From contig JACPUC010000003.1 in the NCBI GenBank assembly GCA_016192455.1, positions 1 through 64,000 of the forward strand: a stretch of 64,000 nucleotides of DNA, in the 5' to 3' direction. The stretch is from Candidatus Tectimicrobiota bacterium (GTDB lineage Bacteria > JACPUC01). A program made the translations under genes and the position numbers. Below, one piece after another: positions 3,114 through 19,875 of the stretch; position 1 is the first letter of the stretch; each line of letters starts with the position of its first letter. The notes below the pieces were generated by a model, which was given only the letters and a program-made list of their open reading frames with translations, made no database searches and had not been told where the DNA came from.

Positions 3114-3824
3114 TCAGGCAACCCCGAAAGAGTTCCTCAGTTCGCTGGGGCGCGCATCAGATTTGGCAGGTAAACTGAAAATGAAGGTAACTCCGTGTTG
3201 CAAATCTGTTGAGTTGCTTGCAAGGTGATCTCCTGAAAGCACGAAAGGACAGGATATGGTGATCCCGAAATCGTTGTCTTCGTTGTATCTCTGAAAAATT
3301 CTCTCGAGTTCCCGTCGCAGGGTTTCAGGCATATACTGCGTTGTCGTAGCAATTACGGTACTTACATGGTTATTTCTTACTTGGCTCGATATCTGAAGTT
3401 CTCCGCCATCCGGAATCGTTTGAAGAGCAAGGATAAGTAGATTAGTGAGTGCCAAGCGGACTTTCGACGGGTTGCCAATCCCTATCGGTAAATCATTCAA
3501 CGTTAAATTAACCGTGAGCTCTGCCCCGCGTTCTCTTGTCTGCTGAATCAATGGCTTAATAACTTCTAGCACCTCGCCAATTGCCGTATTCAACTCTATC
3601 TCGTCGAGCGAATGAATGTGCTTGGAGAGAGGTTTATCGTGTAAGCTTTCTAAGACCCTCGTAACGTCACCACAGCACTGCATGATCAGAGAAAGCTCCT
3701 CCGCGACCGAGGGTTTGGGGAGCAGGGCAGGGTGGTTTTCCAGTAGCCGCGCACTCCTCAAAATCACTAGATCGAGCATTTGGATAAGCTCTTGATAAAA
3801 CCTTTCTAATGCTGGCGCCGACAT
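3114..3824 (-). CDS. Degenerate histidine-kinase ATPase (HATPase_c)-like protein
   Basis: ELNTAIGEVLEVI...GNPSKVRLALTNLLILALQTIPDGGELQIS...GVTFIFSLP; G boxes not recognisable. Confidence 0.6.
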   Translation of the reverse strand: MSAPALERFYQELIQMLDLVILRSARLLENHPALLPKPSVAEELSLIMQCCGDVTRVLESLHDKPLSKHIHSLDEIELNTAIGEVLEVIKPLIQQTRERGAELTVNLTLNDLPIGIGNPSKVRLALTNLLILALQTIPDGGELQISSQVRNNHVSTVIATTTQYMPETLRRELERIFQRYNEDNDFGITISCPFVLSGDHLASNSTDLQHGVTFIFSLPAKSDARPSELRNSFGVA

Positions 3825-3828
3825 GTAA

Positions 3829-4143
3829 TCACTCCTCCATAACTATCCAACCATCCCTCGGCTGTGCCCGGGACTGTCCGTGGTCAGCCAGAGTCTCAAA
3901 TCCGAGACGCCGTACATGGTGTTGCGCCACCCAACTGCAAAACATATGCCAGAAATAATCTGCAGCAATAATTATGAGAATCACCAATATCTCACACAAT
4001 ATCAATATGTTATTCAGCATGACGCCTTCGTCGAAAGCCCACAATTTTCGATTGCGTCTCCTTTCAAAGACGCATAGTATCTTTTTTGATACCCTCATAA
4101 CTGAGTACCTCTCAGGTGCTGGGCGCCACACGCGGGCCTTCAT
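3829..4143 (-). CDS. Small hypothetical membrane protein (start uncertain)
   Basis: Hydrophobic stretch ILILCEILVILIII; ends 5 bp before the next gene and supplies its GAGGAG RBS. Confidence 0.35.
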   Translation of the reverse strand: MKARVWRPAPERYSVMRVSKKILCVFERRRNRKLWAFDEGVMLNNILILCEILVILIIIAADYFWHMFCSWVAQHHVRRLGFETLADHGQSRAQPRDGWIVMEE

Positions 4144-4155
4144 TGGGAAGGGGCT

Positions 4156-5856
4156 ATGCCAATGAGTACTAATGCACAGTGTTTAGTGAGTATAAGAACT
4201 AAAATGCTACGTACTGTCATCCCACTCGTGGCCGTGCCGATCCTCCTCCTAGGGCTGGGATGGTTCGCCACTTCCAAGCTTGAAGAATCAACAAAAAATG
4301 AGCGATTCTTTCAGCAGCGTTCTCAGGATCTGATCGCTATTTCTGAAATTCCTTCTATCCAGAACTTTTTTATTAACTTAGGTTACGGACCAGAGTTTCT
4401 CCCAGAGGCGGATCGTTTTCGCAGAGAAATAGAACGCTATAATGAGAGATTTTTTGTGCGAAACCAGCTTTTCAAGGGAACCCTTTATAAGGACATAAGC
4501 CTCATTGTGCTTATAAGAGACTCCAACGGTATGATTGTGCAATGGAAAGAGGCGCTTCGGTCGACGGCTCAAGAACTTTCTGCTAATCCTACGGCAATTA
4601 TTCCATCGAACACGTACTTGCAATCCGCCCTTCAAAGCGGACCAGGAAAGGTTTCATTCAGCGCCCTGGCCCCAATCATGCACGCCGTAATTCCGATCTA
4701 CAGAGACGAAAACTTTGATGGCCTGAACTCGCCTGCGGAATTAAAAGGGATACTAACGAGCAGCTTTACTTATCCCATGGCTGAATTTCAGCATATTAGG
4801 AAAATGGCATCTTTGACAATTGTATCTATCCTCTTCGCAAGCCTGCTCATAGCGGTGATTATTGTGAGCTTCGTCATCGGCAAAATTACTGAACCCATCA
4901 ATCATCTTGCTGAGGCAACCCAAAGAATTGCGAACGGTCAACTCTCTCTGACGCTTGACGTCAAGACCAATGACGAAATTGGAGCATTGGCTCACGATTT
5001 TAGCAAGATGACCCTTGAACTCAGCCGTTCGATTACGGCGAAAGAGCACTATGCGGCGGAGCTTCAAGCACTGAACACTGAATTAGATATACACGTCCAC
5101 CAACGAACCGAAGAACTCCGTGAAGCAAATAAGAAGCTTCAACTTGCCAACAGGGAGCTTGAAGAAGCTGATCGGATGAAATCAGAATTTCTCGCCAACG
5201 TTTCTCATGAGATTCGTACCCCACTCACCATTATTCGATCTTCGGTATATAACCTTCTCTTAGGTATTGGCGGACCTCCTTCTGAGAAGCAGCAGAAATA
5301 CTTGAAGACGGTGGAGAATAATATACATCGGCTCACGAGTTTTGTTAACGATTTACTAGATTTAGAGCGAATCCGTGCAGGCTTTGTACAGTTCACGCTT
5401 CGCCCTGTCCTGACCTGCAATCTTGTTGAAGTAGTCTTGGACAATCTCGTCGCACAGGCGGCAGAAAAAAATATTACGCTGAACTATGAACGAACTAATC
5501 CGCCCATAGTTGCTTATGCTGACCGGGATCAGACAATTCAAGTACTGACAAATCTTGTCGAAAATGCTATCAAGTTTACCCCCCAAAATGGCAGCATTGT
5601 ACTGAAGACGTATTACGAAAATGGGTCGTGTGTATTAATGGTACAGGATAGTGGAGAAGGAATTCCAGAGCGCGATCTGCCGTTCATCTTTGATCGGTTT
5701 TATCGAGTACAACGTGGGACTGCCGCCAAGGGGAGCGGGCTTGGGCTTTCTATTTGCAAAAGGCTAGTTGAACTTCAAGGAGGCCAGATTCAGGTACAAA
5801 GCAGTCCAGGAGCTGGAACGACGTTTTTTGTTACCTTCGCATCCTACACGCAATAA
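4156..5856 (+). CDS. Membrane sensor histidine kinase (HAMP-HisKA-HATPase)
   Basis: Two TM segments, HAMP (DEIGALA), H box EFLANVSHEIRTPL, NLVENAIKF, DSGEGI, GSGLGL. Confidence 0.95.
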   Translation: MPMSTNAQCLVSIRTKMLRTVIPLVAVPILLLGLGWFATSKLEESTKNERFFQQRSQDLIAISEIPSIQNFFINLGYGPEFLPEADRFRREIERYNERFFVRNQLFKGTLYKDISLIVLIRDSNGMIVQWKEALRSTAQELSANPTAIIPSNTYLQSALQSGPGKVSFSALAPIMHAVIPIYRDENFDGLNSPAELKGILTSSFTYPMAEFQHIRKMASLTIVSILFASLLIAVIIVSFVIGKITEPINHLAEATQRIANGQLSLTLDVKTNDEIGALAHDFSKMTLELSRSITAKEHYAAELQALNTELDIHVHQRTEELREANKKLQLANRELEEADRMKSEFLANVSHEIRTPLTIIRSSVYNLLLGIGGPPSEKQQKYLKTVENNIHRLTSFVNDLLDLERIRAGFVQFTLRPVLTCNLVEVVLDNLVAQAAEKNITLNYERTNPPIVAYADRDQTIQVLTNLVENAIKFTPQNGSIVLKTYYENGSCVLMVQDSGEGIPERDLPFIFDRFYRVQRGTAAKGSGLGLSICKRLVELQGGQIQVQSSPGAGTTFFVTFASYTQ

Positions 5857-5893
5857 GAGTAATCTGCCGCAGCCCAAGAAGGAGGAATGTGGT

Positions 5894-7279
5894 ATGGCAA
5901 AGTATGAAGCAAAAATCCTTATCGCTGATGATGAAGAGGAAATCGTCGATGTCCTGCGCGATATGCTCGAAGCACTTCATTATGAAGTTATTGTAGCTGT
6001 TGATGGATTTCAAGCGCTTGCGCTGATTCGCGAGGAAGAACCTGTTGTCGTGCTGCTGGATTTGAAGCTTCCAAAGTTAGATGGGCTGGAGGTCCTACGC
6101 AGGCTTGCAGAATTGGCAGTAGAAACCACGGTGATTATGCTCACGGCATATGGTACGGTCGAAAACGCCGTAAGGGCAATGAAGATAGGCGCCTATGACT
6201 TCATAATTAAACCTTACAACCCTGAACAGTTGCAGCTGGTTATTGAAAAGGCAGTCGAGCGAGATCGTTTGCGAAGGCAAAACACCTTCTTAAATGAGTT
6301 GGTCAATACCAGGTATAGTCTGCTTATTGGAGGGAATAGGGCCTTCAGAGATGCGTTAGATGAAGCACGTGTGTCCGCAGAAACGGACACGAACATTTTG
6401 CTCGTTGGCGAGACAGGAACAGGGAAGGAAATATTTGCCAGAGCCATACACCGTTGGAGTCGTCGTGCACGTGAGGCATTTGTTCCGATAAATTGCGCAG
6501 CACTCTCAGAGGAACTTCTCCTGAGTGAATTATTTGGGCACGAGAAAGGTGCGTTTACGAGTGCCCATCAAAGAAAACTTGGTAAGTTGGAAATTGCGCA
6601 TAAGGGTACAGTATTTTTGGATGAAATTGGTGATATTGATTTATCAATTCAAGCAAAGTTGTTGCGGTTTTTGCAGGAATATGAATTTGAACGTCTTGGA
6701 GGTAATAAGCAAATCAAGGTTGATATCCGTGTAATAGCCGCCACAAATAAGGATTTGCGGCAGGCTATAAAGAATGGAACTTTTCGGGACGATCTCTACT
6801 TTCGGCTCAATGTCGTTAGCATTATGTTGCCGCCATTGAGAAAGCGACTAGATGATATTCGACTGCTGGCGGACTATTTTCTCCAAAACTGTAATTATTC
6901 AATGAAAAAAAGTGTAAAGGGGATTACCGATGAGGCCTTTGAAGTACTCCAAAACTATACCTGGCCAGGCAATGTTCGGGAACTGCAAAATGTCATTGAG
7001 CGGGCAGTGGTATTCTGCCGCTCCGATGGTATCCATCCCCAGGACATTCTTCTGCAACCCCTTGATGGGCAAATTCTTGCTGGGAGCACTACCACTGCCT
7101 ATCACGACTGTGTCCGGGAATTCAAGCGGCGTCTTATTTATGAAGTACTTCAACAATCCTCCGGAAGCCCAACAAAGGCGGCGCGGACGCTCAAATTACG
7201 AAGAACCTATTTGGCAAGGTTGATCAAACAATTCGACGTTAAATTAACCCCAGCAGGTAGCAGCGACCGGCATGTCTGA
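5894..7279 (+). CDS. NtrC/AtoC-family sigma54-dependent response regulator
   Basis: Receiver (ILIADDE, LLDLKLP), GETGTGKE, ELFGHEKGAFTSA, WPGNVREL, C-terminal Fis-type HTH. Confidence 0.95.
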   Translation: MAKYEAKILIADDEEEIVDVLRDMLEALHYEVIVAVDGFQALALIREEEPVVVLLDLKLPKLDGLEVLRRLAELAVETTVIMLTAYGTVENAVRAMKIGAYDFIIKPYNPEQLQLVIEKAVERDRLRRQNTFLNELVNTRYSLLIGGNRAFRDALDEARVSAETDTNILLVGETGTGKEIFARAIHRWSRRAREAFVPINCAALSEELLLSELFGHEKGAFTSAHQRKLGKLEIAHKGTVFLDEIGDIDLSIQAKLLRFLQEYEFERLGGNKQIKVDIRVIAATNKDLRQAIKNGTFRDDLYFRLNVVSIMLPPLRKRLDDIRLLADYFLQNCNYSMKKSVKGITDEAFEVLQNYTWPGNVRELQNVIERAVVFCRSDGIHPQDILLQPLDGQILAGSTTTAYHDCVREFKRRLIYEVLQQSSGSPTKAARTLKLRRTYLARLIKQFDVKLTPAGSSDRHV

Positions 7280-7505
7280 GCCACAGATAAGCCAAGAAGC
7301 TTCCACTTTCGGAGACCCCGGGTCCCTTTTTCGGTACTTCCTCTAACCCACGAGGAGTAGGAGCGTTCACGGTTTTCATGCGGGTTGCACGTCTGCACAG
7401 CTGCACATGTCGAGGTTTGGCCTTGTTCTTGCTCTTTACCCTGCGCATAGCGCTAACTCCTGTTGAAAAAAACATTTAGAGAAAGTCTTTGCCCGCCTCA
7501 GATTC

Positions 7506-7522
7506 CTGGCATTCGACTTGCT
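7506..7522 (+). promoter_or_regulatory. Sigma54 (-24/-12) promoter
   Basis: CTGGCATTCGACTTGCT: GG-N10-GC spacing, upstream of the GNAT-GT-precursor operon. Confidence 0.75.
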
Positions 7523-7559
7523 TAGTCAGCGATTGTTGCCTTCCGGCCAGGAGTTCACA

Positions 7560-8096
7560 GTGGGCGGTATAAGTCTATTACATCTACATACAAGTACGCG
7601 TGTTCGGACGGTTGAAATAGACGATTATTACTTTATACTCTCCAGCGCCAGCAGGTGGTGGGGAGAACGAGGGCCAGCGATCTTTCCGAGATTCTTTGTC
7701 ACGCACTTCGCTGATACGTGTTTCGTAGCTGAAGGAGCAGAGACCATTGTCGGGTTTCTCTTTTCCTTTCTTTCACAGAAGTACCAGGATGAAGCTTACA
7801 TTCAGGGGGTGGTGGTCGATCCGCAGCACCGCCGCTGCGGCATCGCCTCTCTCCTCTACAAGAGCTTTTTTTCCAACATGATTACGCGAGGGGTCAGGCG
7901 CGTGACAGGCATCCTTTCCCCTGAGAATACTGAGGCGCTCGCGTTCCAAATTTCACAGGGTTTTCGTATCGCTTCCCCTATCCAGTGGGGACAAACACCA
8001 ATCATCGTCAATGGCCTTCCTGCCTTTCCTGATTACCTCGGGGCAGGAAGAAATAAGTTACTCCTTATCAAGACTCTAAAGGAGTCCGGAGCGTAA
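7560..8096 (+). CDS. GNAT-family N-acetyltransferase
   Basis: VVVDPQHRRCGIASLLY acetyl-CoA motif; GTG at 7560 with AGGAG RBS preferred over TTG 7518, which lies inside the promoter. Confidence 0.85.
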   Translation: MGGISLLHLHTSTRVRTVEIDDYYFILSSASRWWGERGPAIFPRFFVTHFADTCFVAEGAETIVGFLFSFLSQKYQDEAYIQGVVVDPQHRRCGIASLLYKSFFSNMITRGVRRVTGILSPENTEALAFQISQGFRIASPIQWGQTPIIVNGLPAFPDYLGAGRNKLLLIKTLKESGA

Positions 8097-8100
8097 GCGT

Positions 8101-9315
8101 ATGAAAATCTGCCTCATCAGCAAGTATCCTCCCATCGAGGGTGGTGTGGCAGCAAAAAGTTACTGGCTCGCAAAGGCACTAGGAGCACGCGGACATCAAG
8201 TGCACGTTGTAACGAACGCTGACGAAGTGGAGGACTCCTATAGGGAGGAAATTCCCGAAGAAGAGAGGGGTCTGCTCGAACCGCAAAACGTTCGCCGTTG
8301 GAGCACTTCGCCTTCGATGAGAAAGCGTTTTATCCCGCAGTACAATCCACACATTGCCAAACTCGCAAATCTCGCGCTTGCAGTGGTGAGAGAAGTTGAT
8401 GTAGACCTTGTGTACTCACATTATCTCCTTCCGTACGGTGTAGCTGCGCTTTTGGTCAAGCAGTTGGGGAAACTGCCTCTGATCGTAAGACATGCCGGCT
8501 CAGATATCACGTCCCTATATCGCGCTCCTTTTTTGCATGAGATCTTGCGTGAAGTCCTCGCAGGCGCAGACGTAGTGCTCGGTACACAAAGGACAAAAGC
8601 TATCCTTAAAGGAAGCGGGATCAACCCAGAAAAGGTGGCCGTAATCAAACAGGCAGTCAATCTACGAGAGTTTCATCCTGACAATCCGGCTTATGATTTC
8701 CGACCGTATGGTATTCCCCACACTGCTGAGTACCCCGTCATCACCTATATCGGAAAGGTTTCAGCGTTGAAGAACCCCACTGCCTTGTTACGCGCTGCAG
8801 CGCGCCTAAAGGATCTCCAATTTTCCTTAGCGTTCGTAGTAGGACGGGGAACGACGATTGAGCAGCTTAAAGGTTTGGCAAAAGAATTGGGAATTGATCA
8901 AAAATGCGTCTTTCTACCCTTTGTCCCCCCTTGGAGCATGTCGCGGATCATGACTGCCTCAACGTGCATCGTAAAACCGGAAAGTGACGAAGAACCGTAC
9001 CTGCCGAGAGGTACCCATTATCCAATCGTATCTCTCGAGGCGATGGCTTGTGCATGCTGCACGATTATCGGTGAAAAAGTAAAAGGGAAGGGTATATACA
9101 GATTCTTTCAGGATGGCGTGCATACCCTCGCAGTGAATCCTTCCAATCCAGAATCATTTGCAGAAAAGCTGGCTTTTATAATTCAATACCCCCAATTGGC
9201 AAAAAAAATCGGCGCAGCAGCTCGGGCGCTCCTGGAACAGCATGACGAGTGGGACGACGCAATCCAAATAATCGAGTCCGTGTTTCTGCGCTGTGTAGAA
9301 ACACATCACGGCTAA
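8101..9315 (+). CDS. GT4 (GT-B fold) glycosyltransferase
   Basis: MKICLISKYPPIEGG, LGARGHQVHVVT, HAGSDI, YIGKVSALKN, IVSLEAMAC. Confidence 0.9.
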   Translation: MKICLISKYPPIEGGVAAKSYWLAKALGARGHQVHVVTNADEVEDSYREEIPEEERGLLEPQNVRRWSTSPSMRKRFIPQYNPHIAKLANLALAVVREVDVDLVYSHYLLPYGVAALLVKQLGKLPLIVRHAGSDITSLYRAPFLHEILREVLAGADVVLGTQRTKAILKGSGINPEKVAVIKQAVNLREFHPDNPAYDFRPYGIPHTAEYPVITYIGKVSALKNPTALLRAAARLKDLQFSLAFVVGRGTTIEQLKGLAKELGIDQKCVFLPFVPPWSMSRIMTASTCIVKPESDEEPYLPRGTHYPIVSLEAMACACCTIIGEKVKGKGIYRFFQDGVHTLAVNPSNPESFAEKLAFIIQYPQLAKKIGAAARALLEQHDEWDDAIQIIESVFLRCVETHHG

Positions 9316-9340
9316 CCCCAGTAGGAGAGGAGGTTGATTG

Positions 9341-9532
9341 ATGGTCAGCACGAGAACCATGTTGGCGTCGGACGTTGCTCAGCTTCTTGAGGTGCGAACC
9401 GCCCGCATCTCAGCAGCTGTCGGGACAAGCATTCCCGGCGGTAACCTGAATCCCGAGTTCGAAGAGGTTTCCCTCTGGGAACCCGCAGATGGATTCTGTG
9501 GTTGCGGTTGCGGGTGTGGGTGCGGTGCCTAA
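9341..9532 (+). CDS. Putative RiPP precursor peptide with C-terminal (Cys-Gly)5
   Basis: Strong RBS AGGAGAGGAGG; 63 aa ending WEPADGFCGCGCGCGCGA; located among tailoring enzymes. Confidence 0.8.
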   Translation: MVSTRTMLASDVAQLLEVRTARISAAVGTSIPGGNLNPEFEEVSLWEPADGFCGCGCGCGCGA

Positions 9533-11022
9533 CGCGCAGCACCGGGTGTCGGTGCGATGCGCACACTTCTCAGAAAGGTGCGCTGGTCCTCTTCTGGTCC
9601 CAGCGCACCAACCCTCTTATTCCTCACCAGGATAAACGGGGAATCATACAGAAAAAGGCAGCAGAGATTGTCGTGGAGCATCTTTTCTAATCTCTGTAGG
9701 AGAACCTTCTGGGTATGAATATCTTGTTCGAGGCTGACCCGCTCCAGCACTTCATCAAAAAGATTATCTTTACGTGACCACCTGAAGATACCATCCTTTG
9801 AGAAGAAGCTGGAAAAAAGGCCAAACGAATCAAATTGGGGGAAAATCGAGGCAATCAATATGTCCCAATCTTGTTGCTGAAGCGCCTCCTTGCTGTATCG
9901 CATGACGTTGATCAGGGGGAAAAAGGCTGACGGATGGAGAGCACTGAAGCTCATGGAAATGCCGAAGGGCTTCAATTGAGCGCGAATAATAAGAGCTAGC
10001 TTTCCCAGGAAATCTGGAACAAGGAGCTTGATGTGAACCTCCGTTCGCTCCTTTTCCATAAAATTTCTCAAGATTCGAGCTCCTTCCGTTGGGTCAAACG
10101 TATAAGGTTCGAGGTCGGGGTTAGAACCAAACATTGAGGGAGGAAGCAGTCCGGCGATAACCCGCCCATTGCCTCCAAGGAAATGATCAATGATTTCGTC
10201 TCTGTTAATTAATAAGTTTAGAGCACGGCGTAAGGGCTTCTGCAGCCAGAGAGAGTTATGTTTCCGTTGGTTAAATACAGCGATCGTCAAGGGCCCAGGG
10301 AGCTTTGAGATTTCGATGTTCGGGTGTGCCACATCGATGTCGGTGAGTGAGTAGCGTGCAACGGTCAAATCAAGTTGACCGTTTTTTACGGCCTCTATTG
10401 CCCATTGGGGATTCGCAGGAGCCGGCACGAGAATGATGCTTGAGATCTTCGGGAAGCGCTTGTCCCAATAGTAGGGGTTGGCCTTGAGCACGATCTTTGC
10501 TGAGGTATGAAAGGTTGTCGAGTGTCCGGAATGAAGAATAAAGGGGCCGGTGCCATAGGGTCCCGGCTCCTTGAGAATGGCGATGGGGGGCTCGGCGTAC
10601 TTGTGTAGGTAGCTGCTTGAGGCAAGAGGAAAAAGGGACAGGCTCAACATAGGAAGCCCTGGCTTATGTGGATAGATAAACCTAATGGTGAAGGGGGAGA
10701 TGACCTCCATCTTCGTGTTGTTAGGGAAAGCCCTGGTCCTTCCTCGTGCTGGTTGGTAGGATTTGTAAACCTCAAAATTCTGTCGCACGACCTCGGCATC
10801 AAATGGCGTACCATCGTGAAAGCGCACACCCCTTCGCAGGTGGAGTTCAAGCGTTCGGACATTGCTCCAGCGCCAGTCCGTCGCCAGGACTCCCTTCGGT
10901 TCGCCATTCAGAACTTCTATCAGTGGCTCGAAGACCAAATCGTGGACATGTGTAAATGGCCGAATATGCCACCCAAAGGTAAGCTGAAAATCTGAGGACG
11001 AAACTACTACCTTTGGATACAT
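9529..11022 (-). CDS. Family 5 (OppA/DppA/NikA-like) solute-binding protein (start uncertain, may extend upstream)
   Basis: LATDWRW, LRRGVRFHDGTPFDAEVV, PYGTGPF, LRRALNLLINRDEII. Confidence 0.85.
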   Translation of the reverse strand: MYPKVVVSSSDFQLTFGWHIRPFTHVHDLVFEPLIEVLNGEPKGVLATDWRWSNVRTLELHLRRGVRFHDGTPFDAEVVRQNFEVYKSYQPARGRTRAFPNNTKMEVISPFTIRFIYPHKPGLPMLSLSLFPLASSSYLHKYAEPPIAILKEPGPYGTGPFILHSGHSTTFHTSAKIVLKANPYYWDKRFPKISSIILVPAPANPQWAIEAVKNGQLDLTVARYSLTDIDVAHPNIEISKLPGPLTIAVFNQRKHNSLWLQKPLRRALNLLINRDEIIDHFLGGNGRVIAGLLPPSMFGSNPDLEPYTFDPTEGARILRNFMEKERTEVHIKLLVPDFLGKLALIIRAQLKPFGISMSFSALHPSAFFPLINVMRYSKEALQQQDWDILIASIFPQFDSFGLFSSFFSKDGIFRWSRKDNLFDEVLERVSLEQDIHTQKVLLQRLEKMLHDNLCCLFLYDSPFILVRNKRVGALGPEEDQRTFLRSVRIAPTPGAAR

Positions 11023-11038
11023 AGTGATGAGGCAAAAA

Positions 11039-11959
11039 ATGAAGAGACATGCAAGACCCCTCCCCCAGCTACCGGCCGTCGGTGTCGGCCTCGGATATCG
11101 CCCTGCGCTACACAGAGAGATAGTATCACATTTGCGCGAAATCACCTGTCTTGAAATCATTATCGACCATTTCCTTGATATGACCCCAGAAAAAGAGGCA
11201 CAGTTTCATGACCTCGCCAGTAATGTCTGTCTCCTCTCCCATGGCATTGGTATGTCCTTGGGAACGGCACTTCCGGTAGAAAGTGCGTATGTCAATAAAG
11301 TTAAGCGAACGCTAGACATCGCGCGCTCCCCCTGGTTCAGTGAACATGCAGCGTTTACGAAAGTACCAGGAATTGACCTTGGGCAGTTGATGCCACTGCC
11401 CTTCACTGAGGAAGCCGTTGATGCGATCACGCAAAATATAGGAAAACTGAAAAACAAAATCAAGCAGCCACTTCTCTTGGAAAACATAGCCTACTATCTC
11501 GCACACCCCGCTGGGGAAATGACGGAAGCGGAGTTCCTCACGCGCATATTGCACAAAGCTAATGTCTACTTGCTCTTGGACATCAATAATGCCTATACCA
11601 ACTCGGTCAATCACAACTACGACCCATATGAGTTTATTCTCTCGCTGCCTCTCGACAGAGTTGTCCAAATTCACCTCGCTGGAGGTGAATGGAAGGGACA
11701 ATACCTTATCGACTCTCATCGGAGGTCGATCTCACGTGAGGTTTGGAGGCTCTTCGATTTTGTCGTCCCGCGTTGTGCGGTGAAGGGCGTTATTGTAGAA
11801 CGCGATGGTCATTACCCGCCATTTTCAGAACTTCTCGAAGAGGTGCGCACGGCGAGGTCCACATTGAGAAAATACGGAATCTTCGTTCGCAGTCTTCGGA
11901 GGAGGGTAACAAGTGTTCCTGGCAGAACAACAAATGCTGCTCGCCCGAGTTCTTACTGA
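11039..11959 (+). CDS. DUF692 / MNIO multinuclear non-heme iron oxidative enzyme (MbnB/TglH/ChrH family)
   Basis: GVGLGYR, SHGIGMSLG, FSEH, LLLENI, LLLDINNAYTNSVNH, QIHLAGG, IDSH, VERD. Confidence 0.92.
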   Translation: MKRHARPLPQLPAVGVGLGYRPALHREIVSHLREITCLEIIIDHFLDMTPEKEAQFHDLASNVCLLSHGIGMSLGTALPVESAYVNKVKRTLDIARSPWFSEHAAFTKVPGIDLGQLMPLPFTEEAVDAITQNIGKLKNKIKQPLLLENIAYYLAHPAGEMTEAEFLTRILHKANVYLLLDINNAYTNSVNHNYDPYEFILSLPLDRVVQIHLAGGEWKGQYLIDSHRRSISREVWRLFDFVVPRCAVKGVIVERDGHYPPFSELLEEVRTARSTLRKYGIFVRSLRRRVTSVPGRTTNAARPSSY

Positions 11960-12761
11960 TGAAGTTGTGCGGCAGGCGATTGCTGGCAGTAATGATGTGG
12001 AGGGATCACTCCGTGAGTTTCCTGACGAGGCTCGTGCCTACCTGCGCGCGCTCGATAGCAGCCGTTTAACCCTCTGTGCCGACCTCATCAAGCAAAAGCG
12101 CGAAGCGAAGATTCGTCAGATGCTTCCTTTAACTATTGGTTTGCTGGGCACGGACGCGGAAGGATTGTTTGCCTCTTTTTTTCCTATGACTCCACCAACG
12201 ACAATCAGTTTTCTTGAGGAAGCGATTGCGTTTTACCATTTTACTTGCTCTCCAAAGTTCGAGACCAGGAATGGCATCCAACTGGTAAGGGAGGTAGGCC
12301 GCTGGGAATTGTTGTGCCATGAAATTTCCCAGGAAACAAAAACCAAGATCTGTCTCTTGTCGTGCTGCACGCAGCATGCGCAACCCCGTGGCCGGATTGA
12401 TGCGAGCACGATTCTACAGAATTGCGCACATGCCAGATGGGAATCGTTTACCTATGAGATACACACTATTGCCAAAAATTACAATGCGAACAATTGCGTG
12501 AAAGCGCCGCGGAAGGATCCTCAGACTTATCTCTTTTACAAGATATCAGGAGTGGAGCAAATACACATTAGCAAAATCAATGAGGTAACAAGGTTATTCC
12601 TCGACTGCTGTGTCGGCGGAAGTCACTTTCGCAAGATAGAGATGGTTTTGCAGGATCGACTAGGAATGAATACCACAGAGAAGAGGAAGGCATTTCGATT
12701 AGCGTTGCATGAGCTTGCCGAACGCCTCTATATGAAGCGCATCATAAGCAGAGTAAACTGA
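11913..12761 (+). CDS. MNIO partner protein (DUF2063/ChrI-like)
   Basis: Overlaps the DUF692 3' end with GGAGG RBS; N-terminus LAEQQMLLARVL...LPLTIGLLG...EAIAFY fits partner proteins. Confidence 0.65.
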   Translation: MFLAEQQMLLARVLTDEVVRQAIAGSNDVEGSLREFPDEARAYLRALDSSRLTLCADLIKQKREAKIRQMLPLTIGLLGTDAEGLFASFFPMTPPTTISFLEEAIAFYHFTCSPKFETRNGIQLVREVGRWELLCHEISQETKTKICLLSCCTQHAQPRGRIDASTILQNCAHARWESFTYEIHTIAKNYNANNCVKAPRKDPQTYLFYKISGVEQIHISKINEVTRLFLDCCVGGSHFRKIEMVLQDRLGMNTTEKRKAFRLALHELAERLYMKRIISRVN

Positions 12762-12763
12762 CA

Positions 12764-14644
12764 ATGTTTCCTCAGGAAATCTCTAACATAGGACGTATTA
12801 ATTTTGCCGGAGCAACGGCGCATCGGGTAACTAATTGGCCGTTTCGACGGATTTTCTCATATTTTTCGAGGTTTAAGAGAGAACTTGTCTTCATCCTTTT
12901 AAGCATTGTACTTGCAGCGGTTGCGCGCACGCTAGTTCCGTTAATTCTGCGCAACATTATTGACCATCAGATAGTTGCGTATGAACCATATCGACTCGCG
13001 CTAACTGTATTATTACTCATCAGTCTCACCCTTGGTGCGGCGCTCGTTGGAATTGTCGAGAATCATGTCAACACATCCGTAACACAGCATGTCATCTTGA
13101 ATTTAAGACAGGAATTATATGAGAGATTGCAGGAGAGCTCTTTGCAAAAGCTTACCAATACCGCAACGGGAGATCTGCTGTCGCGCTGTACGAACGACCT
13201 GACAGGGGTGCAGGAAGTATTGGCGCGTTCATTTGCCCTCAGTACGGCGAATCTCGTGACCGTCCTTGCGACATGCGTCGTTATGTTTTACCTTGACGCG
13301 TGACTTGCGACTTTTACGCTTGCGATTCTCCCCCTCTTTGTCCTCCCGGTTCGGCGCATTGGAAAATTACGTCAAACCGTGAAACATGCTGTGCAAGAAA
13401 GATTAAGCCTTTTGACTTCGCTCTTGGACGAAGCTACTCGGGTTCAAACCGTAATCCTAACTCGGTCATTTAATTTGACAAAACAGCGCACGAAGCACTA
13501 TCGAGAAATAACAGATGAGGTAAGAAAGCTTGAATGTCGGAACCATTTCATTGGAAGATGTTTTCTTCTCCTTCTATCAACAGCCTCGCCAGTTGGGGTT
13601 GCGCTACTGTTTTGGTACGGCATCCCAAAAGTAGCACATGGTGATCTCACCCTAGGCACGTTGATAGCTTTCAGTGCTTACCTGGGAAGGATTTATGCTC
13701 CGGTGAGCCAATTACTTAACGTCCAGATCGATTTTCTTGCCTCCATTGCGTTGTTCCAAAGAATATTTGAAGTCTTTGATCATTATGGCAAACCGAATCG
13801 CCGGGTAAGGGAGAAGAGAATTGTCGAATTTACGAAGGGATCAATAGCGGTAAGAAATCTCTCATTTACGTACGATGCCCAATGTTGGGGCATCAAAGAC
13901 GCTTGTTTTGACATCAACCAGGGGGAGATTGTAGCTCTTGTTGGTCCGTCTGGAGCGGGAAAGACTACCTTGGCATACCTCCTTGCGGCCCTGTATGAGC
14001 CGACCCTCGGCAGTATTTCTATAGATGGCTATAATGTTTTGGATCTTGATGAAAAAAGTCTGCGCCGGTGCGTCGCACTTGTGACAGAAGATAATTGCTT
14101 GCTGGATGCGACGATAAGAGATAATCTTCTACTTGGCAATGAATTGGCCCGCGAGGATGAAATTCTGAAGGCTTGCAAAGCGGTGGGCATACATGATTAT
14201 ATCACCTCACTTTCTAAGGGATACGAGAGTTGGTTACACCAGGGTGGTGCCCAGTTGTCCGCAGGACAGAAAAGGAGGGTGATGCTCGCGAGGGCAATGA
14301 TTAAGAATCCGCTCATTCTTATTCTTGATGAAGTTACTTCTTCCCTTGACCCGATGGCTCAGGATTCCATCAACAATGTTATCAAAGCATTGTTTGCTCA
14401 GCGAAGCGGTCTTATTATAGGTCATCATCTCCCAACAATATTGCTCGCAGATAGAATTCTCGTCATCGAGAACGGAAGAATTGTTCAGCAAGGCGTCCAC
14501 GAAAAACTTGTAAGAGAGGGCGGCCTCTATGCGCGTTTATTTTCCTCATATCCATATAATGGCAGGGATAATAGTATGGAAATTGTGCTCCAGAATTCCA
14601 GGGTAAATACTGCAGATCATAAAGAATACATTCAGGAAAGATAA
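12764..14644 (+). pseudogene. ABC exporter (TMD+NBD) interrupted by one in-frame TGA at 13301-13303
   Basis: ORFs 12764-13303 and 13379-14644 are in the same frame; reads YLDA*LATFTLAILPLF; GPSGAGKT, LSAGQ, ILDE motifs. Confidence 0.85.
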
Positions 14645-14817
14645 CCGAGAGTTGAAGCTTCAAGCATTGCAATACATTCTTTTTATACCTGGTATGAGTG
14701 TTCACGCTGTCTGAGACATACTGACTTGGAAAGTATCGTATTTAATCTGCCCTAGACAGCCTTCACAAAAGAGTGGGGGAAGCGTGGACTTTGAGCTGCT
14801 CAGGATGGAGTATTATT

Positions 14818-16068
14818 ATGAGTATCACAAAACGTCCTTACGAAATTTCAGCAGCAGTGCAGTCTGTCTGCGACCGACTAAATAGACTTTATGACGAGGG
14901 TGCGAAATTATATTTTAATACTATTCGCAGAAAACTTGTGCCTAAACCATCACTACACATTTCCGTCACCAATAGGTGTAATCTGTCTTGCACTTACTGT
15001 TACGACAAGATGAGCCAACCTCCTTTTGTCAAGCGCCGCGATATGAGTACGGATGTTGCGACGAGAATATTCAAACAATATCCTGACCCATCTTATGTAT
15101 TTGTACTGGGAGGAGAACCCTTTTTAAATCCTCACGCTGTTGAAGTTCTGCTCGATCATTGTCCCAACAGAATGGTAATCTCTTCGAACGGGCAAGTGCT
15201 CAATGGCCATGTGGAGAGAATTCTCAAGAAGATTATGCGTCGGAACGAAGAAGGACGTGGGACATTACTCCAGATTTCCTGTGAGCTCGGAGGGGTGAGC
15301 TGCGAGCGAAATACAAGAAATGCTGAAGAAATTCTGCGCTACTTTTCTCATGTATGTGGTAGATTCATGAAAGTAAAATATACCCTGACAGCCCCAGACC
15401 TTATCCATATAGATGCAATAGCCCGTTGGTACTGGGACCGAAATATCCTTGTGCAATTTGACTACGTTGATGGCGGCTACGAGAAGGGAGAAGCAATTGA
15501 TCTCTCTGAGACCAACTGGAAAAGGGTGTTTGCGTTTATTCTTAGCGTGCTGCACGAGAGCTTCGAGGAGTGGGCGCAAGGTAACTCCGATGAATGGTTA
15601 ATTCTTCGCGCCAAAACTCTGGTGCACTATGTTTTTCCGCTGACGGTCATGCAGATCAAACATAAGCATCCGCTCTGGTCAATGTGCGGCGTGTTTGGTA
15701 ATTCTGTCTACATTGGCCCTGGGGGTGAGCTCTTCCCATGCCATCGTTGGAAAGCTAGTGTGGAATCCTACGGTTCTTTAGGAGAGCCATGTGAGAGTCG
15801 CATGTTAGCGTTTCATACCGAATCCTGGCCTTCTCTTCAACGTTACTGTGAAGAGTGTGTGTGGCGGGGAAGTTGTGGCGGTGTGTGTCCAGCGGTAACT
15901 TGCACATATGGCGGATTGAGCCTTATTGGACGGTGTAAATTTATGGGAGCGTTACGGGATGCGGTGTGGTCATTTCTATTGGATAAGACAATTGTGTGTC
16001 ATCCACAAATTGATCAATATCTAGACCTCATAAGAGAACTTTCGCCCTTCTACAAGGCTTTAATATAG
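14818..16068 (+). CDS. Radical SAM/SPASM peptide maturase
   Basis: CNLSCTYC, GGEPF; SPASM CG...GELFPCH...CEECVWRGSCGGVC. Confidence 0.9.
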   Translation: MSITKRPYEISAAVQSVCDRLNRLYDEGAKLYFNTIRRKLVPKPSLHISVTNRCNLSCTYCYDKMSQPPFVKRRDMSTDVATRIFKQYPDPSYVFVLGGEPFLNPHAVEVLLDHCPNRMVISSNGQVLNGHVERILKKIMRRNEEGRGTLLQISCELGGVSCERNTRNAEEILRYFSHVCGRFMKVKYTLTAPDLIHIDAIARWYWDRNILVQFDYVDGGYEKGEAIDLSETNWKRVFAFILSVLHESFEEWAQGNSDEWLILRAKTLVHYVFPLTVMQIKHKHPLWSMCGVFGNSVYIGPGGELFPCHRWKASVESYGSLGEPCESRMLAFHTESWPSLQRYCEECVWRGSCGGVCPAVTCTYGGLSLIGRCKFMGALRDAVWSFLLDKTIVCHPQIDQYLDLIRELSPFYKALI

Positions 16069-16210
16069 CCAGACGAAGGCAGTCTTTTCTATGTCATGTG
16101 TAACGATGTTGTATGAGAATAATACTTTTTCGCCAGCACTTCTTTCAACCCCATTCGTTCATAGTCCTGGTATTTAAAATGTTCACCGCCGTGGGTGCGG
16201 CGCGACAGGT

Positions 16211-16510
16211 TCAGTAGCTCAAGGTGCGGTCGAGGGTGCGGTACATGATGGCTTCGCCGAGGTGGGTTGCCGTGAGGCGCTCCTCGCCCGCCAGGTCGGC
16301 GATGGTGCGGGAGACCTTGAGGATGCGGTCGTGGGCGCGCGCCGACAGGCCGAGCTGGTTGATCGCCGCGTCGAGGAGGCGCTGCGACGGCTCGTCGAGC
16401 TGGCAGTGGCGCCGCAGGTGTTTCGAGGTCATGTGGGCGTTGCAGTAGAGGGAGTCCTTGGCGAAGCGGGCAAGCTGCCGCTGCCGCGCCGCCTCGACGC
16501 GTTCCCGCAC
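16211..16510 (-). repeat. 300-bp duplicated comM 3' end, copy 2
   Basis: Matches 452-751; joined out of frame to the comM 5' half. Confidence 0.9.
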
Positions 16511-16530
16511 GTGAGGTAGCCGCAGGGGCA
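16511..16530. repeat. att-like direct repeat, right copy
   Basis: Exact match to 912-931. Confidence 0.85.
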
Positions 16531-17583
16531 GGGGTTCATCGCGGCGGTGAGCATGAAGCGCGCCGGGAAGGTGAGGGAGAGCTTCGAGCGGCTGATGGTG
16601 ACCTTGCCATCCTCGAGGGGCTGGCGCAGCACTTCGAGGACGTGGCGGCGGAACTCCGGCAGCTCGTCGAGAAAAAGGACGCCGTTGTGCGCCATGCTCA
16701 CCTCGCCGGGCCGCGGCAGGCTGCCGCCGCCGACCAGGCCGGCATCGCTGATGCTGTGGTGCGGGTTGCGGAAGGGGCGGGCGCCGACCGGCGCCTGCCC
16801 CTGGCCGAGCAGCCCCATGACGCTGTGGACTTTCGTCGTCTCGATGGCCTCCTCGAACGACATGCTCGGCAAGATCGTCGCCAGGCGCCGCGCCAGCATC
16901 GACTTGCCGGCACCGGGCGGGCCGAGCATGAGCATGTTGTGTCCACCCGCCGCCGCCACCTCGAGGGCGCGCTTGACGTGCTGCTGCCCCTTCACCTCGG
17001 CGAGATCGACGCTCTCCTCGGCGGCCTGCCGCAGCACCTCGTCGCGGTCCACCCGGTAGGGGATGATGGTCGCCGCCTGGTTCAGGAAATCCACCGCGTG
17101 GGGGAGGTTCTTCACCGCGTAGACCGGCATCTCCTCGACGACGGCTGCTTCCGCCGCGTTCTCCGCCGGCACGAGGAGTCCCCGGTACCCATGCGCGCGC
17201 GCGTAGACCGCCACCGGCAGGGCGCCCTGGATGGGTTTCACCAGGCCGTCGAGGGAGAGCTCGCCCAGGATGAGGTAATCGCGCAGGCCGTCGCTCTCCA
17301 CCACCCCCAGGGCGGCGAGAAGGCCGACGGCGATGGGCAGGTCGAACGCCGAGCCGCGCTTCTCGACATCGGCCGGGGCGAGGTTGAGGGTGATGTTCTT
17401 GGGCGGGAATTCGAAGCCGCAGTTGCGCACCGCGGCGCGCACGCGTTCCTTGCTCTCTTTGACGGCGGCGTCCGGCAGGCCGACGATGTTGAAGGCCGGC
17501 AGGCCGCGCGCAATGTCCACCTCCACCTCGACGCGGAAGGCCTCGATGCCCACCACCGTGCAGCTATGAACCTTGGCGAGCAT
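16511..17583 (-). pseudogene. comM: 5' half of comM/YifB
   Basis: MLAKVHS...[11 protein letters not shown]...[11 protein letters not shown]...[13 protein letters not shown]...[10 protein letters not shown], then goes out of frame. Confidence 0.92.
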
Positions 17584-17755
17584 GGCGGCTGGACACCCCC
17601 CGCAGGCGCGGCAGCGCGGCAAGGCGAAGACCTCGCGCGCGCACCAAATCATGGCGGCGCGTCATGCAGCGGTTGCAGCATACTCTGTGCCAGCGGGAGC
17701 GTCCAGGGGATTGCAAAGGGGCCCCCATGGGGCCCCGAGGTGGGCGCCGCGTGCC

Positions 17756-17953
17756 CTACGCCGTCGCCTGTGCCGCCACGCGGTTCAGCTCCTCGATGAG
17801 CTGGTCGATGGTCGTGACGCCGCAGGCCCTGGCGGTCTGCTCGATCGAGTGGCTGCCGCCGCAGCAGAAATCGACCCCGAAATTGCCGAAGACGTTGACG
17901 GTTTCCGGGTACTGCTCGGTGACGTCGCGAATGATCATCTCTTTGGTAATCAT
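17756..17953 (-). CDS. Stand-alone ScdA_N/DUF542-like domain protein
   Basis: YPETVNVFGNFGVDFCCGG motif of the RIC/ScdA N-terminus. Confidence 0.8.
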   Translation of the reverse strand: MITKEMIIRDVTEQYPETVNVFGNFGVDFCCGGSHSIEQTARACGVTTIDQLIEELNRVAAQATA

Positions 17954-19875
17954 GGGTGAACCTCCTCTGTCTCGGTGATGACTTCCCTGATCCGCGCGAT
18001 GAGGGTTTCAAGCTTCAGGCCGTGCATCTGCGAGGCCATGCCGAGGGTGACCATCGGCGGCACGGCGGGAAGCTGGCGGAGATGCTCGAACCCGAGGTCG
18101 ACGAGCGCCTCCTTGATCACAGGCCAGCGCTCGACGAGCGGGGCGATGCGCGTCTCGGCGTTCAACTCGACCGCCGCACCCTTGCCGCTTGCCGAGGTGG
18201 GGGCGGCCGGCGCGGCTGGCACCGGGGTGGCGGGCGGGCGGGTCGCCGTTACACTGGCAAGGGGGACAAACCGCGGCCCTGCCTGGGCCGGCGGCTGCGG
18301 CGCGGATGCGGTCGGGTAGCTGGGCAGCGTGGCCTGGCGAATCGACGGCGACTGCGCCGCGCTGACCCGCTGCCGCATCGTCTGCCAGAGATTGACGGCG
18401 AAGCAGACGATCGCCGCAAGCTGCAGGTAGCCGGAGAGACCGACCGCTGCCCAGACGGCCGCGGCGGCGCTGCCGGCGTAGGGAACCACTGACTCCCCCC
18501 CAACCCGCAGTACGTTCCCGGCCAACAGCAGCCAGAAGGAGGCGCGCAGCAAGGCGGGGTTGTAGAGGGTGACGCCCTGGAAGACGGGAAGCACGCGGTA
18601 GCCGACGCCGAGCATGAGGCTGGTGACGAAGCCCACGGCGAGAGCGTGGCGCCCGGCGCCCAGGACCTCGAGCGGCAAGGGCCGGCCCGCAAGGCTGGAG
18701 GCCGCCGCGACCACCAGGAGGATGGCCAGCCCCACAAGGAGCCAGCCGTAGCCCGTGATGATGAACCAGGCGAAGGCCGGATCGACGCCGCGGATGGCGA
18801 CGCGCATGCGGGGCGGCTCGAAGATGCGCAGCCCCGCCGCCACGAAGGCGGCGCCGACGAGCATGAGGAGCGCGGCGGCGAAGGAGGGACCCGCCGGCAG
18901 CAGACTCAGCGCCACGCCGGCGTTGAAGCAGAGGAAGCCGGTGGTGCTGAAGCGCGGCAGCGATGGCTTGAGCCCCAGGAAGTTCGGCAGGATGCGCTGC
19001 GATACGCCGAAGATGAGGTTGCCGGCGAAGCCGAGGAGCGCCAAGACGATCAGCCCGTCGTTGAGGCGCCCGAACATGAGGCCGAAGCCGCCCCGCGCCA
19101 TCACCCAGGCGGTCCAGAGGTTCCAGACGCCAAGCAGCAGGAAGGAGCCGAGGGCGGCGGCGAGGAATTTCTCGTAGCCCTCGTTGGGCGCCTGTCCCTT
19201 GGCAAGCACCCACACGGCGCTCGCCGCGAAGATGACGACGGCCGCCAGCTCGAGGAGGGCGGAGGTCACCATCACCCCGGCGGCGTAGCCTTCACTGACC
19301 CACGGCTGGGACGACACCCGCAAGAGGACGCCGGCCAGCATCAGCCCCAGCGAGGTGAGCGCCAACGGCGCTGGCGCGGCGGGAGCGTTGCGGAACTTCG
19401 GCAGCACGTAGTAAGCGATCCCCATGATGAAGAGGGCCACCCAGCCGAAAATCTGCGCGTGCCCGTGCGCCTGCGACCAGCTCAGCGGCGCGCCGCCGAG
19501 GGAGCGCGAGAAGGCGATGCGGCTGAGGTTGTAGACGCCCCAGGCGCCGCCCAGGGTGAGGGTGATGCCCAAGGCGCTCCAGACGAAGGGGCGGAAGATC
19601 GCCGCGGGGGTTGGCGGCGTGGCGGCGGCTGGTTGGCTTGCCGGAGGCGCCACGGGCGCCGCGGCGGCGCGCTCCAGGTCGCGCAGCAGGTCAGGCAGAT
19701 TGATATGATGCGCCGCGGCAAAGAAGCTCAGCGGCTCCGGCGGACCGTACGGCCCGCCGCACCCCGCCATGCCGTGGCGCTCGAAGACGGCCTGGCAGGC
19801 CGGGTAGGTCATGTTCACCTGCTGCACCGTCATCTCGGCGTCGATGTGGATCGTTGCGGCTCGGTTGTCTGACAT
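17950..19875 (-). CDS. NnrS-like multi-pass membrane protein with terminal DUF1858/ScdA-like domains
   Basis: AHGHAQIFGW, RHALAVGF, about 12 hydrophobic segments; soluble N- and C-terminal domains. Confidence 0.75.
   Translation of the reverse strand: MSDNRAATIHIDAEMTVQQVNMTYPACQAVFERHGMAGCGGPYGPPEPLSFFAAAHHINLPDLLRDLERAAAAPVAPPASQPAAATPPTPAAIFRPFVWSALGITLTLGGAWGVYNLSRIAFSRSLGGAPLSWSQAHGHAQIFGWVALFIMGIAYYVLPKFRNAPAAPAPLALTSLGLMLAGVLLRVSSQPWVSEGYAAGVMVTSALLELAAVVIFAASAVWVLAKGQAPNEGYEKFLAAALGSFLLLGVWNLWTAWVMARGGFGLMFGRLNDGLIVLALLGFAGNLIFGVSQRILPNFLGLKPSLPRFSTTGFLCFNAGVALSLLPAGPSFAAALLMLVGAAFVAAGLRIFEPPRMRVAIRGVDPAFAWFIITGYGWLLVGLAILLVVAAASSLAGRPLPLEVLGAGRHALAVGFVTSLMLGVGYRVLPVFQGVTLYNPALLRASFWLLLAGNVLRVGGESVVPYAGSAAAAVWAAVGLSGYLQLAAIVCFAVNLWQTMRQRVSAAQSPSIRQATLPSYPTASAPQPPAQAGPRFVPLASVTATRPPATPVPAAPAAPTSASGKGAAVELNAETRIAPLVERWPVIKEALVDLGFEHLRQLPAVPPMVTLGMASQMHGLKLETLIARIREVITETEEVHP

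Follow-up and report, generated by a model that had tools for sequence, protein, structure and literature searches.

The window analysed here is the first 64 kb of a 365-kb contig (JACPUC010000003.1) in the assembly of a Candidatus Tectimicrobiota bacterium (GCA_016192455.1; 31 contigs, 4.46 Mb, 88% complete). Near its left end lies a low-GC island in which the gene for an MNIO (DUF692) enzyme (open reading frame (ORF) 11024–11959, plus strand, likely start ATG 11039) overlaps by 47 nt the gene for a partner protein of 282 residues (11913–12761, plus strand), with a gene for a 63-residue cysteine-rich peptide upstream (9341–9532, plus strand). An earlier note on this DNA had described a co-oriented run of genes for a GNAT acetyltransferase, a family 4 glycosyltransferase (GT4), the peptide, the DUF692 enzyme with its overlapping partner, an ABC exporter and a radical S-adenosylmethionine (SAM)/SPASM enzyme, and had proposed that four tailoring chemistries converge on the one peptide. 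Hidden Markov model (HMM) searches confirmed PF05114, SPASM, GT4 and GNAT, all above their cut-offs. The shared orientation holds for these genes, which lie on the plus strand, but not for the whole interval, since a gene for an SBP_bac_5 protein runs on the minus strand at 9529–11160. We hold with moderate confidence that this is a biosynthetic island of the RiPP type (peptides made by ribosomes and modified after translation), horizontally acquired and inserted in comM, and that the peptide tail FCGCGCGCGCGA is the substrate of the MNIO and its type 2 partner.

The island, of about 15.7 kb, is set apart by its composition and by its borders. GC content is 0.45–0.51 across 4–16 kb against 0.66–0.73 for most of the remaining window, and GC at third codon positions (GC3) is 0.44–0.61 in the island genes and 0.90–0.91 in the flanking comM and NnrS genes. 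A direct repeat of the comM 3' end, 300 nt long and 94% identical, occupies 451–750 and 16210–16509 (both on the minus strand). The left copy is a displaced comM 3' end (Mg_chelatase_C; PF13335, E 2.9e-34 on ORF 452–880) and forms one island boundary, while the right copy abuts the truncated 5' part of comM (16429–17652). Low GC, deviating GC3 and the flanking repeat together bear out the view that these genes belong to one island. The comM gene, a Mg-chelatase-like competence gene found in the window at 452–880 and 16211–17652, was recognized as the insertion site, and contigs of sequencing run X6, from a related population, show the empty-site form by joining position 863 straight to 16518. 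In run X1 an independent contig of 15,425 nt spans 890–16302 with two differences, at a depth of 17.4 beside 18.7 and 21.5 for the flanking contigs. Short identical island pieces occur in run X5 of a second study, and run X6, of a third study, holds pieces 87–97% identical over the kinase, regulator, GNAT, GT4, MNIO/partner and ABC genes. The sequencing runs holding island sequence are all groundwater metagenomes, and there were no RNA datasets among the runs listed as holding it. No Rfam family was found in 1–18500 and no tRNA gene in the window. A second low-GC patch at 20–22 kb (GC 0.52) contains an ORF of 297 residues of foreign composition (20369–21262), and a further GC dip lies at 44–46 kb (GC 0.55).

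The peptide, MVSTRT...ADGFCGCGCGCGCGA, consists of a leader and then the core FCGCGCGCGCGA, its C-terminus being five Cys-Gly dyads; it has no hydrophobic N-terminal stretch and no HMM match. Because a strong Shine-Dalgarno sequence, GGAGAGGAGG, lies 7 nt ahead of the ATG, because its codons show varied synonymous use (a 6-nt repeat matched only 80%), and because it has one homologue, we judge the 63-residue Cys-rich peptide of the earlier note, present with its (Cys-Gly)5 end, to be a real gene. The homologue, P0261, has 65 residues (E 1.5e-11), ends FCGCGCACGCGCGS and was the one found among 1.84 billion representatives. The two peptides have 28 invariant columns of 65 and a common block P-E-x-E-E-x-S-x-W-x-x-x-D-G-F, that is, PE-EE-S-W---DGFCGCGC. 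The (Cys-Gly)n coding pattern occurs at this locus only in the genome, and none of the other island proteins has a Cys-Gly tail like that of the peptide. A single match of the DNA pattern for DGFCGCGC in viral sequence (L182) was discarded as spurious, as it lies antisense in a phage tail-fibre gene.

The MNIO matches PF05114 (E 1e-80) with 271.3 bits against a cut-off of 25, over profile positions 1–261 of 263, and this match together with the 47-nt overlap substantiates the pairing of a DUF692 enzyme with a partner. The MNIO and 12 relatives share, without exception in these 13 sequences, residues H73, H108, E153, D186, N189, H217, D230, H232 and E259, a His/Asp/Glu/Asn pattern that may correspond to the iron ligands of MbnB and TglH. 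The closest solved structures are 3BWW (E 1.4e-63), then TglH and then MbnB. Among 5.8 billion protein clusters its closest match, itself excluded, has 48% identity, and in 185,579 species genomes the best has 42%. The genome is the sole one of its phylum in the collection searched; of 40 genomes that share just the domain with it, one carries an MNIO (36% identity), and MNIO relatives on plasmids are all below 38% identity.

The partner gave no Pfam match, and its match to HvfC is remote (E 4.3e-5, 23.5 bits against a cut-off of 142). In phmmer it matches six type 2 partners, and an alignment of the partner with eight relatives, compared by hhalign with 10 HvfC/DUF2063-type partners, gave a probability of 96.6% (E 5.8e-10). 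The protein thus appears to be of the type 2 (DUF2063-like) kind, and it fits the "PME-type 2" of Antoine et al. (2025; PMC12452194). At the related loci L021 (8847–9716), L034 (4911–5744) and L029 (8862–9383) the type 2 partners resemble, over their first ~60 residues, the leader-peptide-like domain that NCBIfam calls "Os1348 family NHLP clan" (E 6e-7 to 5e-11). The partner family profile also has a weak PDB match, to the alpha chain of nitrile hydratase (E 0.21).

The relationships of the MNIO were examined with 95 related MNIO loci, each labelled by its neighbour through local profiles seeded with HMM-verified proteins. In a 96-row FastTree a split with support 99 separates a 27-row clade, which includes the window MNIO, from a 69-row clade. 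Type 2 partners adjoin 23 rows of the former and one row of the latter, in which 41 rows adjoin HvfC/DUF2063 partners. IQ-TREE, run on 37 rows (the 27-row clade and 10 hand-picked type 1 rows, leaving out 59 rows), recovered the same split with support 100 and did not fix the position of the window MNIO among L019, L021/L024, L034 and a 14-row TIGR04222-linked core. By these trees the MNIO is a member of the type 2 partner clade, not of the captophorin/bufferin clade.

The window MNIO falls in a 20-row subclade, where two of its 19 relatives have no upstream DNA and 17 are assessable. In 15 of the 17 the ORF ending at the MNIO has 3–9 Cys in its last 30 residues; in L032 two such Cys-rich peptides lie downstream instead, and L034 has a doubtful candidate only. 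Membrane proteins of the TIGR04222 kind, with the ending ...GGCGGCGG, make up most of these 15 (two confirmed by NCBIfam), and the others are short leader peptides. The basal members of the subclade have short leader peptides without a signal sequence. The tail in L019 is SCACVCVCACIISAA (ending SCACVCVCAC), L021 has a 47-residue peptide ending CGGCDGCGKPGCSKCGDEV with the tail CGGCDGCGKPGCSKCG, L024 has a 46-residue peptide ending CSGLCGSCTCCSG, and the L036 peptide has nine Cys in its last 30 residues. Among the ORFs of the first 20 kb, a local profile from five TIGR04222 proteins found none within 2.5 kb of the window MNIO, and none of the nine cluster proteins matched TIGR04222 in NCBIfam. 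In PMC12452194 the TIGR04222 group is given as an untested, though likely, MNIO substrate. The tail of the window peptide fits the subclade rule of Cys/Gly-rich C-terminal tails beside the MNIO, and the link between peptide, MNIO and partner appears well supported because such a tail precedes the MNIO in 15 of the 17 relatives. The same rule, with the finding that no other island protein has such a tail, makes it very improbable that the peptide is an unmodified metallothionein-like thiol peptide and that the MNIO has another substrate. That explanation could draw on the alternating Cys, which resemble the Cys-x-Cys motifs of metallothioneins, and on the transcription of the peptide apart from the MNIO, but the conserved 50-residue leader would have no role in a plain metallothionein.

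A possible pathway on this basis would begin with binding of the conserved leader block (PE.EE.S.W...DGF) by the partner, after which the MNIO would oxidatively turn the Cys of the Cys-Gly dyads into sulfur-bearing heterocycles. These would most likely be 5-thiooxazoles, by analogy with the nearest characterised enzymes, the alternative being oxazolone/thioamide. The peptide so modified would be rich in thiolates and would bind soft metals, and the product is probably a metallophore. Going by gene content, cross-links of the thioether or carbon-carbon kind are probably introduced by the radical SAM enzyme, which resembles CteB, while a sugar may come from the GT4 and an acetyl group from the GNAT. 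Secretion would fall to the ABC exporter, and the NikA-like binding protein may take the product up again.

The evidence that weighs against this proposal concerns its chemistry, the participation of the accessory enzymes, the intactness of the island and its control. As to the chemistry, the MNIO remains below the equivalog cut-offs of its two best NCBIfam models, BufB (224.4 bits against 310) and HvfB (216.1 against 360), with lower scores for ApyH (104 against 400), ChrH (80 against 600) and MbnB (28.8 against 325). PMC13097082 reports that MNIO-PME1 pairs form 5-thiooxazoles at Cys and that FonB favours a Cys-Gly dyad, and it lists 3BWW within the MNIO-PME1 set. However, type 2 partners also serve TglH, ApyH and PbsC, with quite different chemistry (PMC12452194), and thiooxazole formation is therefore put forward as an analogy and not as a homology-based assignment. 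Because the MNIO falls below the BufB and HvfB cut-offs and has a type 2 partner, the chemistry cannot be read from known enzymes; given the peptide as substrate, we see about an even chance that thiooxazoles are formed.

The nearest MNIO relatives, at 43–46% identity, are found in the TIGR04222/MNIO/PME-type 2 clusters of PMC12452194, which share with the window a DUF2063-like type 2 partner after the MNIO and substrate candidates that end in Gly/Cys-rich tails. The window differs in carrying the tail on a 63-residue cytoplasmic leader peptide instead of a polytopic membrane protein, in having an MNIO outside the 14-row core clade of those clusters (support 97), and in adding the GT4, GNAT, SPASM radical SAM enzyme, ABC exporter and binding protein. 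The captophorins (bufferins, oxazolin, fontiphorin and gonophorin; PMC13097082) belong to the same MNIO superfamily, in which BufB and HvfB are the best models, and like the window peptide they have a Cys-rich precursor with Cys-Gly dyads and a likely role in metal binding. In contrast, the window MNIO is below both cut-offs and in a separate clade (support 99 and 100), its partner lacks the DUF2063 Pfam signature and shows remote homology only, and its peptide has no Sec signal and carries Cys at every second residue, not in 5-mer repeats.

Methanobactins (MbnA/MbnB/MbnC and MbnE) resemble the window cluster in a leader-bearing precursor without signal, in cytoplasmic modification followed by export, and in a family-5 binding protein in the cluster, MbnE being such a protein. 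The window MNIO is nevertheless far from MbnB by its score, and the nine cluster proteins scanned include no match to MbnC. No TonB-dependent receptor gene was noticed, the flanking ORFs not having been scanned for one. In ranthipeptides/SCIFF (CteB, PapB) and QhpD, SPASM radical SAM enzymes link Cys sulfur to carbon, and the window enzyme is nearest to PapB and CteB. It shares with ranthipeptide enzymes a full seven-Cys SPASM domain and a Cys-rich substrate with conserved Glu/Asp/Ser upstream of the cysteines, but it scores 69.6 bits where PapB requires 340, has no N-terminal recognition domain and belongs to a tiny family. We know of no link between the ranthipeptide, SCIFF or QhpD classes and an MNIO. 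By the defining sequence tests the cluster is not a captophorin, methanobactin or ranthipeptide cluster; its nearest neighbour is the uncharacterised TIGR04222/type 2 partner group, from which its free leader peptide and its unusual added enzymes set it apart. The claim that no characterised class has this enzyme set and precursor agrees with the HMM libraries and literature searches, where none was found. Neither this gene set, nor an MNIO accompanied by a GT4, nor a core of the (Cys-Gly)n kind was found described in the literature; such clusters could be listed in the supplementary biosynthetic gene cluster tables and figures of PMC12452194 and PMC13097082. The main text of PMC12452194 has radical SAM in the reference list only and no glycosyl, SPASM, acetyltransferase, ABC transporter or solute-binding terms.

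The radical SAM/SPASM enzyme (ORF 14773–16068; protein on record 14818–16068, 416 residues, plus strand) matches PF04055 (E 3e-11, 44.2 bits against 29.5) and TIGR04085 (31.2 bits against 27). Its C54, C58 and C61 (CX3CX2C) and the seven SPASM cysteines C290, C308, C344, C347, C353, C357 and C373 are invariant in 15 family members, in keeping with the assignment made earlier. The family is tiny, with 15 full-length relatives at 41–56% identity among the 5.8 billion clusters; two of its relatives come from Candidatus Magnetoglobus. With 53 residues before CX3CX2C, the enzyme has no room for an N-terminal recognition domain. The best NCBIfam model is PapB (E 2.8e-19), well below its cut-off, and the closest solved structure is CteB (5WGG, E 8.5e-13); structural neighbours in the Atlas, QhpD-type proteins (TM 0.76) and SCIFF maturases (TM 0.73), are a lead only. 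Plasmids gave no relative at E<=1e-10, and matches in viral contigs were mostly 21–25% identical, reaching 36% over short partial segments.

Homologues of the radical SAM enzyme, the GNAT, the binding protein and the peptide were found in none of the 95 related MNIO loci (BLASTP E<=1e-3), 39 of which have at least 3 kb on both sides of the MNIO. Locus L037 likewise had no radical SAM homologue by BLAST, and a crude co-location check across the nearest MNIO, radical SAM, GT4 and peptide relatives gave no coincidence. Accessory enzymes of the same classes that are not orthologous do recur with other MNIOs of the 27-row clade. In Legionella shakespearei (L001, 8624–14890) a GNAT, a type 2 partner, an MNIO, a PhnY-like dioxygenase and an ABC exporter stand in a row; L002 and L003 resemble it by BLAST, and no Cys-rich small ORF was seen near the L001 genes. 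Another MNIO/radical SAM pairing in this clade is found at L005 (8168–11209, a Verrucomicrobiales metagenome-assembled genome), where a GrrM/OscB-type cyclophane-forming radical SAM/SPASM enzyme (444 bits against 310) and a 116-residue ORF are present, with a 409-residue MNIO adjoining.

The GNAT gene (ORF from TTG 7518, likely start GTG 7560 behind GGAG, ending at 8096, plus strand) matches PF00583 (E 1.1e-10, 42.2 bits against 20.7), and the GT4 gene (8101–9315, plus strand, 404 residues) matches PF00534 (E 1.5e-19, 70.6 bits against 26.4) and PF13439 (E 3.8e-15, 56.8 against 28.5), so that both were rightly named in the earlier note. The nearest NCBIfam models of the GT4 are far below cut-off (MshA 88 bits against 462.5, BshA 72 bits against 273.7). 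Two loci of the related MNIOs have a GT4 of their own. The order NusG-like protein, GT4, peptide, MNIO, partner, AsnB-like protein, 2-oxoglutarate (2OG) oxygenase, MBL protein and MacB in L021 includes the GT4-peptide-MNIO-partner order of the window, and L034 has partner, MNIO, GT4, AsnB-like protein and methyltransferase. These two GT4s (L021, 5269–7305; L034, 6568–8487) are sisters (support 100), and each has ~250 extra C-terminal residues. The L021 extension aligns with the type 2 partner alignment (hhalign 85.7%, E 5.5e-6), and the L034 extension gave a weak NGO1945_C match (E 0.071). The resemblance of the extensions to the MNIO partner argues that these GT4s recognise the peptide via a fused partner-like recognition domain; no report of a peptide-recognition-like domain fused to a glycosyltransferase beside an MNIO was found in the literature. 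The extensions have no match in the window, and the window GT4, which lacks a partner-like domain, groups not with this pair but with ~33 GT4s of unknown context.

It could thus be that the MNIO and partner modify the peptide and that the radical SAM enzyme, GNAT, GT4 and/or binding protein serve other substrates or reflect island assembly, with at most two chemistries acting on the peptide. We regard this mosaic as a real if minority possibility. Besides the 95 loci lacking the radical SAM and GNAT homologues and the co-location check, it agrees with the broad clade of the GT4 (Woesearchaeota, Omnitrophica and others, at 36–48% identity) and with the short N-terminus of the radical SAM enzyme, too short for a fused peptide-recognition domain. 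The peptide also sits in the GNAT-GT4 operon while the MNIO is in another transcription unit, with a 1.6-kb antisense gene between them that splits the cluster. On the other hand, the genes are tightly spaced (GNAT stop 8096 and GT4 start 8101; GT4 stop 9315 and peptide start 9341; ABC gene 3 nt after the partner end) and of uniformly foreign composition, the diverged X6 copy spans kinase, regulator, GNAT, GT4, MNIO/partner and ABC genes together, and every class of accessory enzyme is found again beside one or another MNIO of this clade. The expectation that homologous loci keep the gene set and the peptide was thus borne out for the Cys/Gly tail and, in two loci, for a GT4, but not for the radical SAM enzyme or the GNAT. 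Accordingly, the RiPP-like cluster around an MNIO, its partner and a Cys-rich precursor stands, whereas the convergence of all four chemistries on the peptide is not proven: for the radical SAM enzyme and the GNAT it depends on adjacency, and the GT4 is apart from the MNIO-linked pair.

The ABC exporter gene (12764–14644, plus strand) encodes the ABC_membrane and ABC_tran domains, as expected from the earlier note, and no peptidase domain, but its frame is broken by an in-frame TGA (13301–13303, codon 180), the two exporter ORFs being a single interrupted frame. In solved ABC transporters the residue aligned with the TGA is Q, R or K, one position after a conserved Trp. The TGA is not an assembly slip, because the X1 and X4 contigs carry the same sequence: the X4 contig spans 13050–13997 without differences, TGA included, and neither of the two differences in the X1 contig is listed at this site. 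A recoded codon was considered and ruled out, since four other island genes end in TGA and the codon occurs in frame only once. We therefore read it as a nonsense mutation, by which the pathway may be impaired in this genome. Pfam scans of the island proteins also revealed no protease for leader removal.

These findings raise the question of whether the whole cluster is a relic without function and in decay, brought in by an island that targets comM and has since lost its mobility genes, with its exporter knocked out. The TGA is present in the assemblies of two samples of one study (X1 and X4), and in the Pfam scan no integrase was seen among the island genes and an ISL3 transposase fragment was seen at 2668–3009, so that the island may be decaying. 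The 5' part of comM is truncated and enters the right repeat copy out of frame (16429–16510), and comM is probably inactivated because the copy of its 3' end on the island side fails to bring the gene back into frame. Nevertheless, we find this explanation rather unlikely. From the kinase to the radical SAM enzyme, the nine remaining island genes have intact ORFs, those with an HMM available match it over the full length, and the host keeps rpoN. Ten X6 differences were listed within the MNIO and ABC frames, and more than 1,100 others exist between X6 and the window; of the ten, eight are synonymous, four of these in the ABC gene downstream of the TGA, and two are conservative. A lone nonsense codon may also have arisen recently, be leaky, or occur in this population only.

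The SBP_bac_5 gene (9529–11160, minus strand, E 1.5e-45) encodes a family-5 solute-binding protein of 543 residues (NikA/GsiB/DppA-like) and lies antisense in the interval between peptide and MNIO. NikA scores 79 bits, below its cut-off, and with a start at 11160 the protein has a hydrophobic stretch at residues 35–45. With this start its first 46 codons overlap the MNIO start antisense (11024–11160), and the third codon positions coincide. No solved methanobactin-binding protein was among its 45 matches at E <=1e-5. Were this protein an unrelated passenger and the exporter a means of secretion and immunity, the product could be antimicrobial, in the manner of a bacteriocin, instead of a metallophore. 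A leader peptide with a dedicated ABC exporter, in place of the Sec signal typical of bufferins (PMC12452194), would suit such a product, as would the CteB/PapB-like radical SAM enzyme, as in ranthipeptides, and the location on a mobile island. We consider it unlikely, as the characterised Cys-modifying MNIO products named in PMC13097082 and PMC12452194 all bind copper, a NikA/CntA/GsiB-like binding protein lies inside the cluster, no immunity gene is evident, and a five-thiol core would have an obvious metal affinity.

Upstream of the biosynthetic genes lie a sensor histidine kinase gene (4156–5856, plus strand; HATPase_c E 2.3e-28, HisKA E 1.2e-18, HAMP E 7.2e-12) and a gene for an NtrC-type sigma-54-dependent response regulator (5894–7279, plus strand; Sigma54_activat E 3.9e-68, Response_reg E 4.5e-28). 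These proteins could switch on the GNAT-GT4-peptide operon, directly before which a sigma-54-type promoter-like site, TGGCATTCGACTTGC (7507–7521, plus strand), has one mismatch to the sigma-54 promoter consensus TGGCAC-N5-TTGC; the host genome carries rpoN. The site is a lead only, a single one-mismatch match, since sigma-54-type matches are not enriched in the window (62 found against 71.9 expected, with at most two mismatches). The exact consensus is absent from the island, and scans for sigma-70 promoters and terminators did not rise above shuffles. Two strong RNA hairpins lie directly 3' of the peptide stop (9534–9609, plus strand; -43 kcal/mol, z -4.95), and none of 200 shuffles folds as well. 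A second one-mismatch sigma-54-type site, TGGCATATGTTTTGC (3937–3951, minus strand), was seen upstream of a 236-residue minus-strand ORF (3114–3824) that has no Pfam match and is divergent from the histidine kinase gene.

In its fullest form, the proposal would make this cluster a new RiPP family, its product a glycosylated, cross-linked poly-thiooxazole (or other sulfur heterocycle) metallophore made by a type-2-partner MNIO, a CteB-like SPASM radical SAM enzyme, a GT4 and a GNAT, exported by the ABC transporter, recaptured by the NikA-like protein and placed under sigma-54 two-component control. We think it decidedly unlikely that every part of this picture holds. If it did, the product would be the first MNIO product to carry a sugar, and the pathway the first in which an MNIO and a radical SAM enzyme jointly modify cysteines; should the peptide also be a substrate of the radical SAM enzyme, two metalloenzyme chemistries would meet on one five-Cys core.

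MNIO enzymes are yielding new peptide chemistry and copper-binding natural products at a fast-growing pace. The type 2 partner clade has been noted in print beside Cys/Gly-rich tails, and no characterised member of it was found. In most members of the clade a large membrane protein, difficult to handle, would carry the substrate tail. That a GT4 has a partner-like domain fused to it in two relatives suggests that glycosylated MNIO peptides exist in nature, of which the literature searches turned up no report. The island described here, together with L019, L021 and L024, carries the same kind of tail on a short soluble leader peptide, and these loci may therefore make the chemistry of the clade testable by co-expression.

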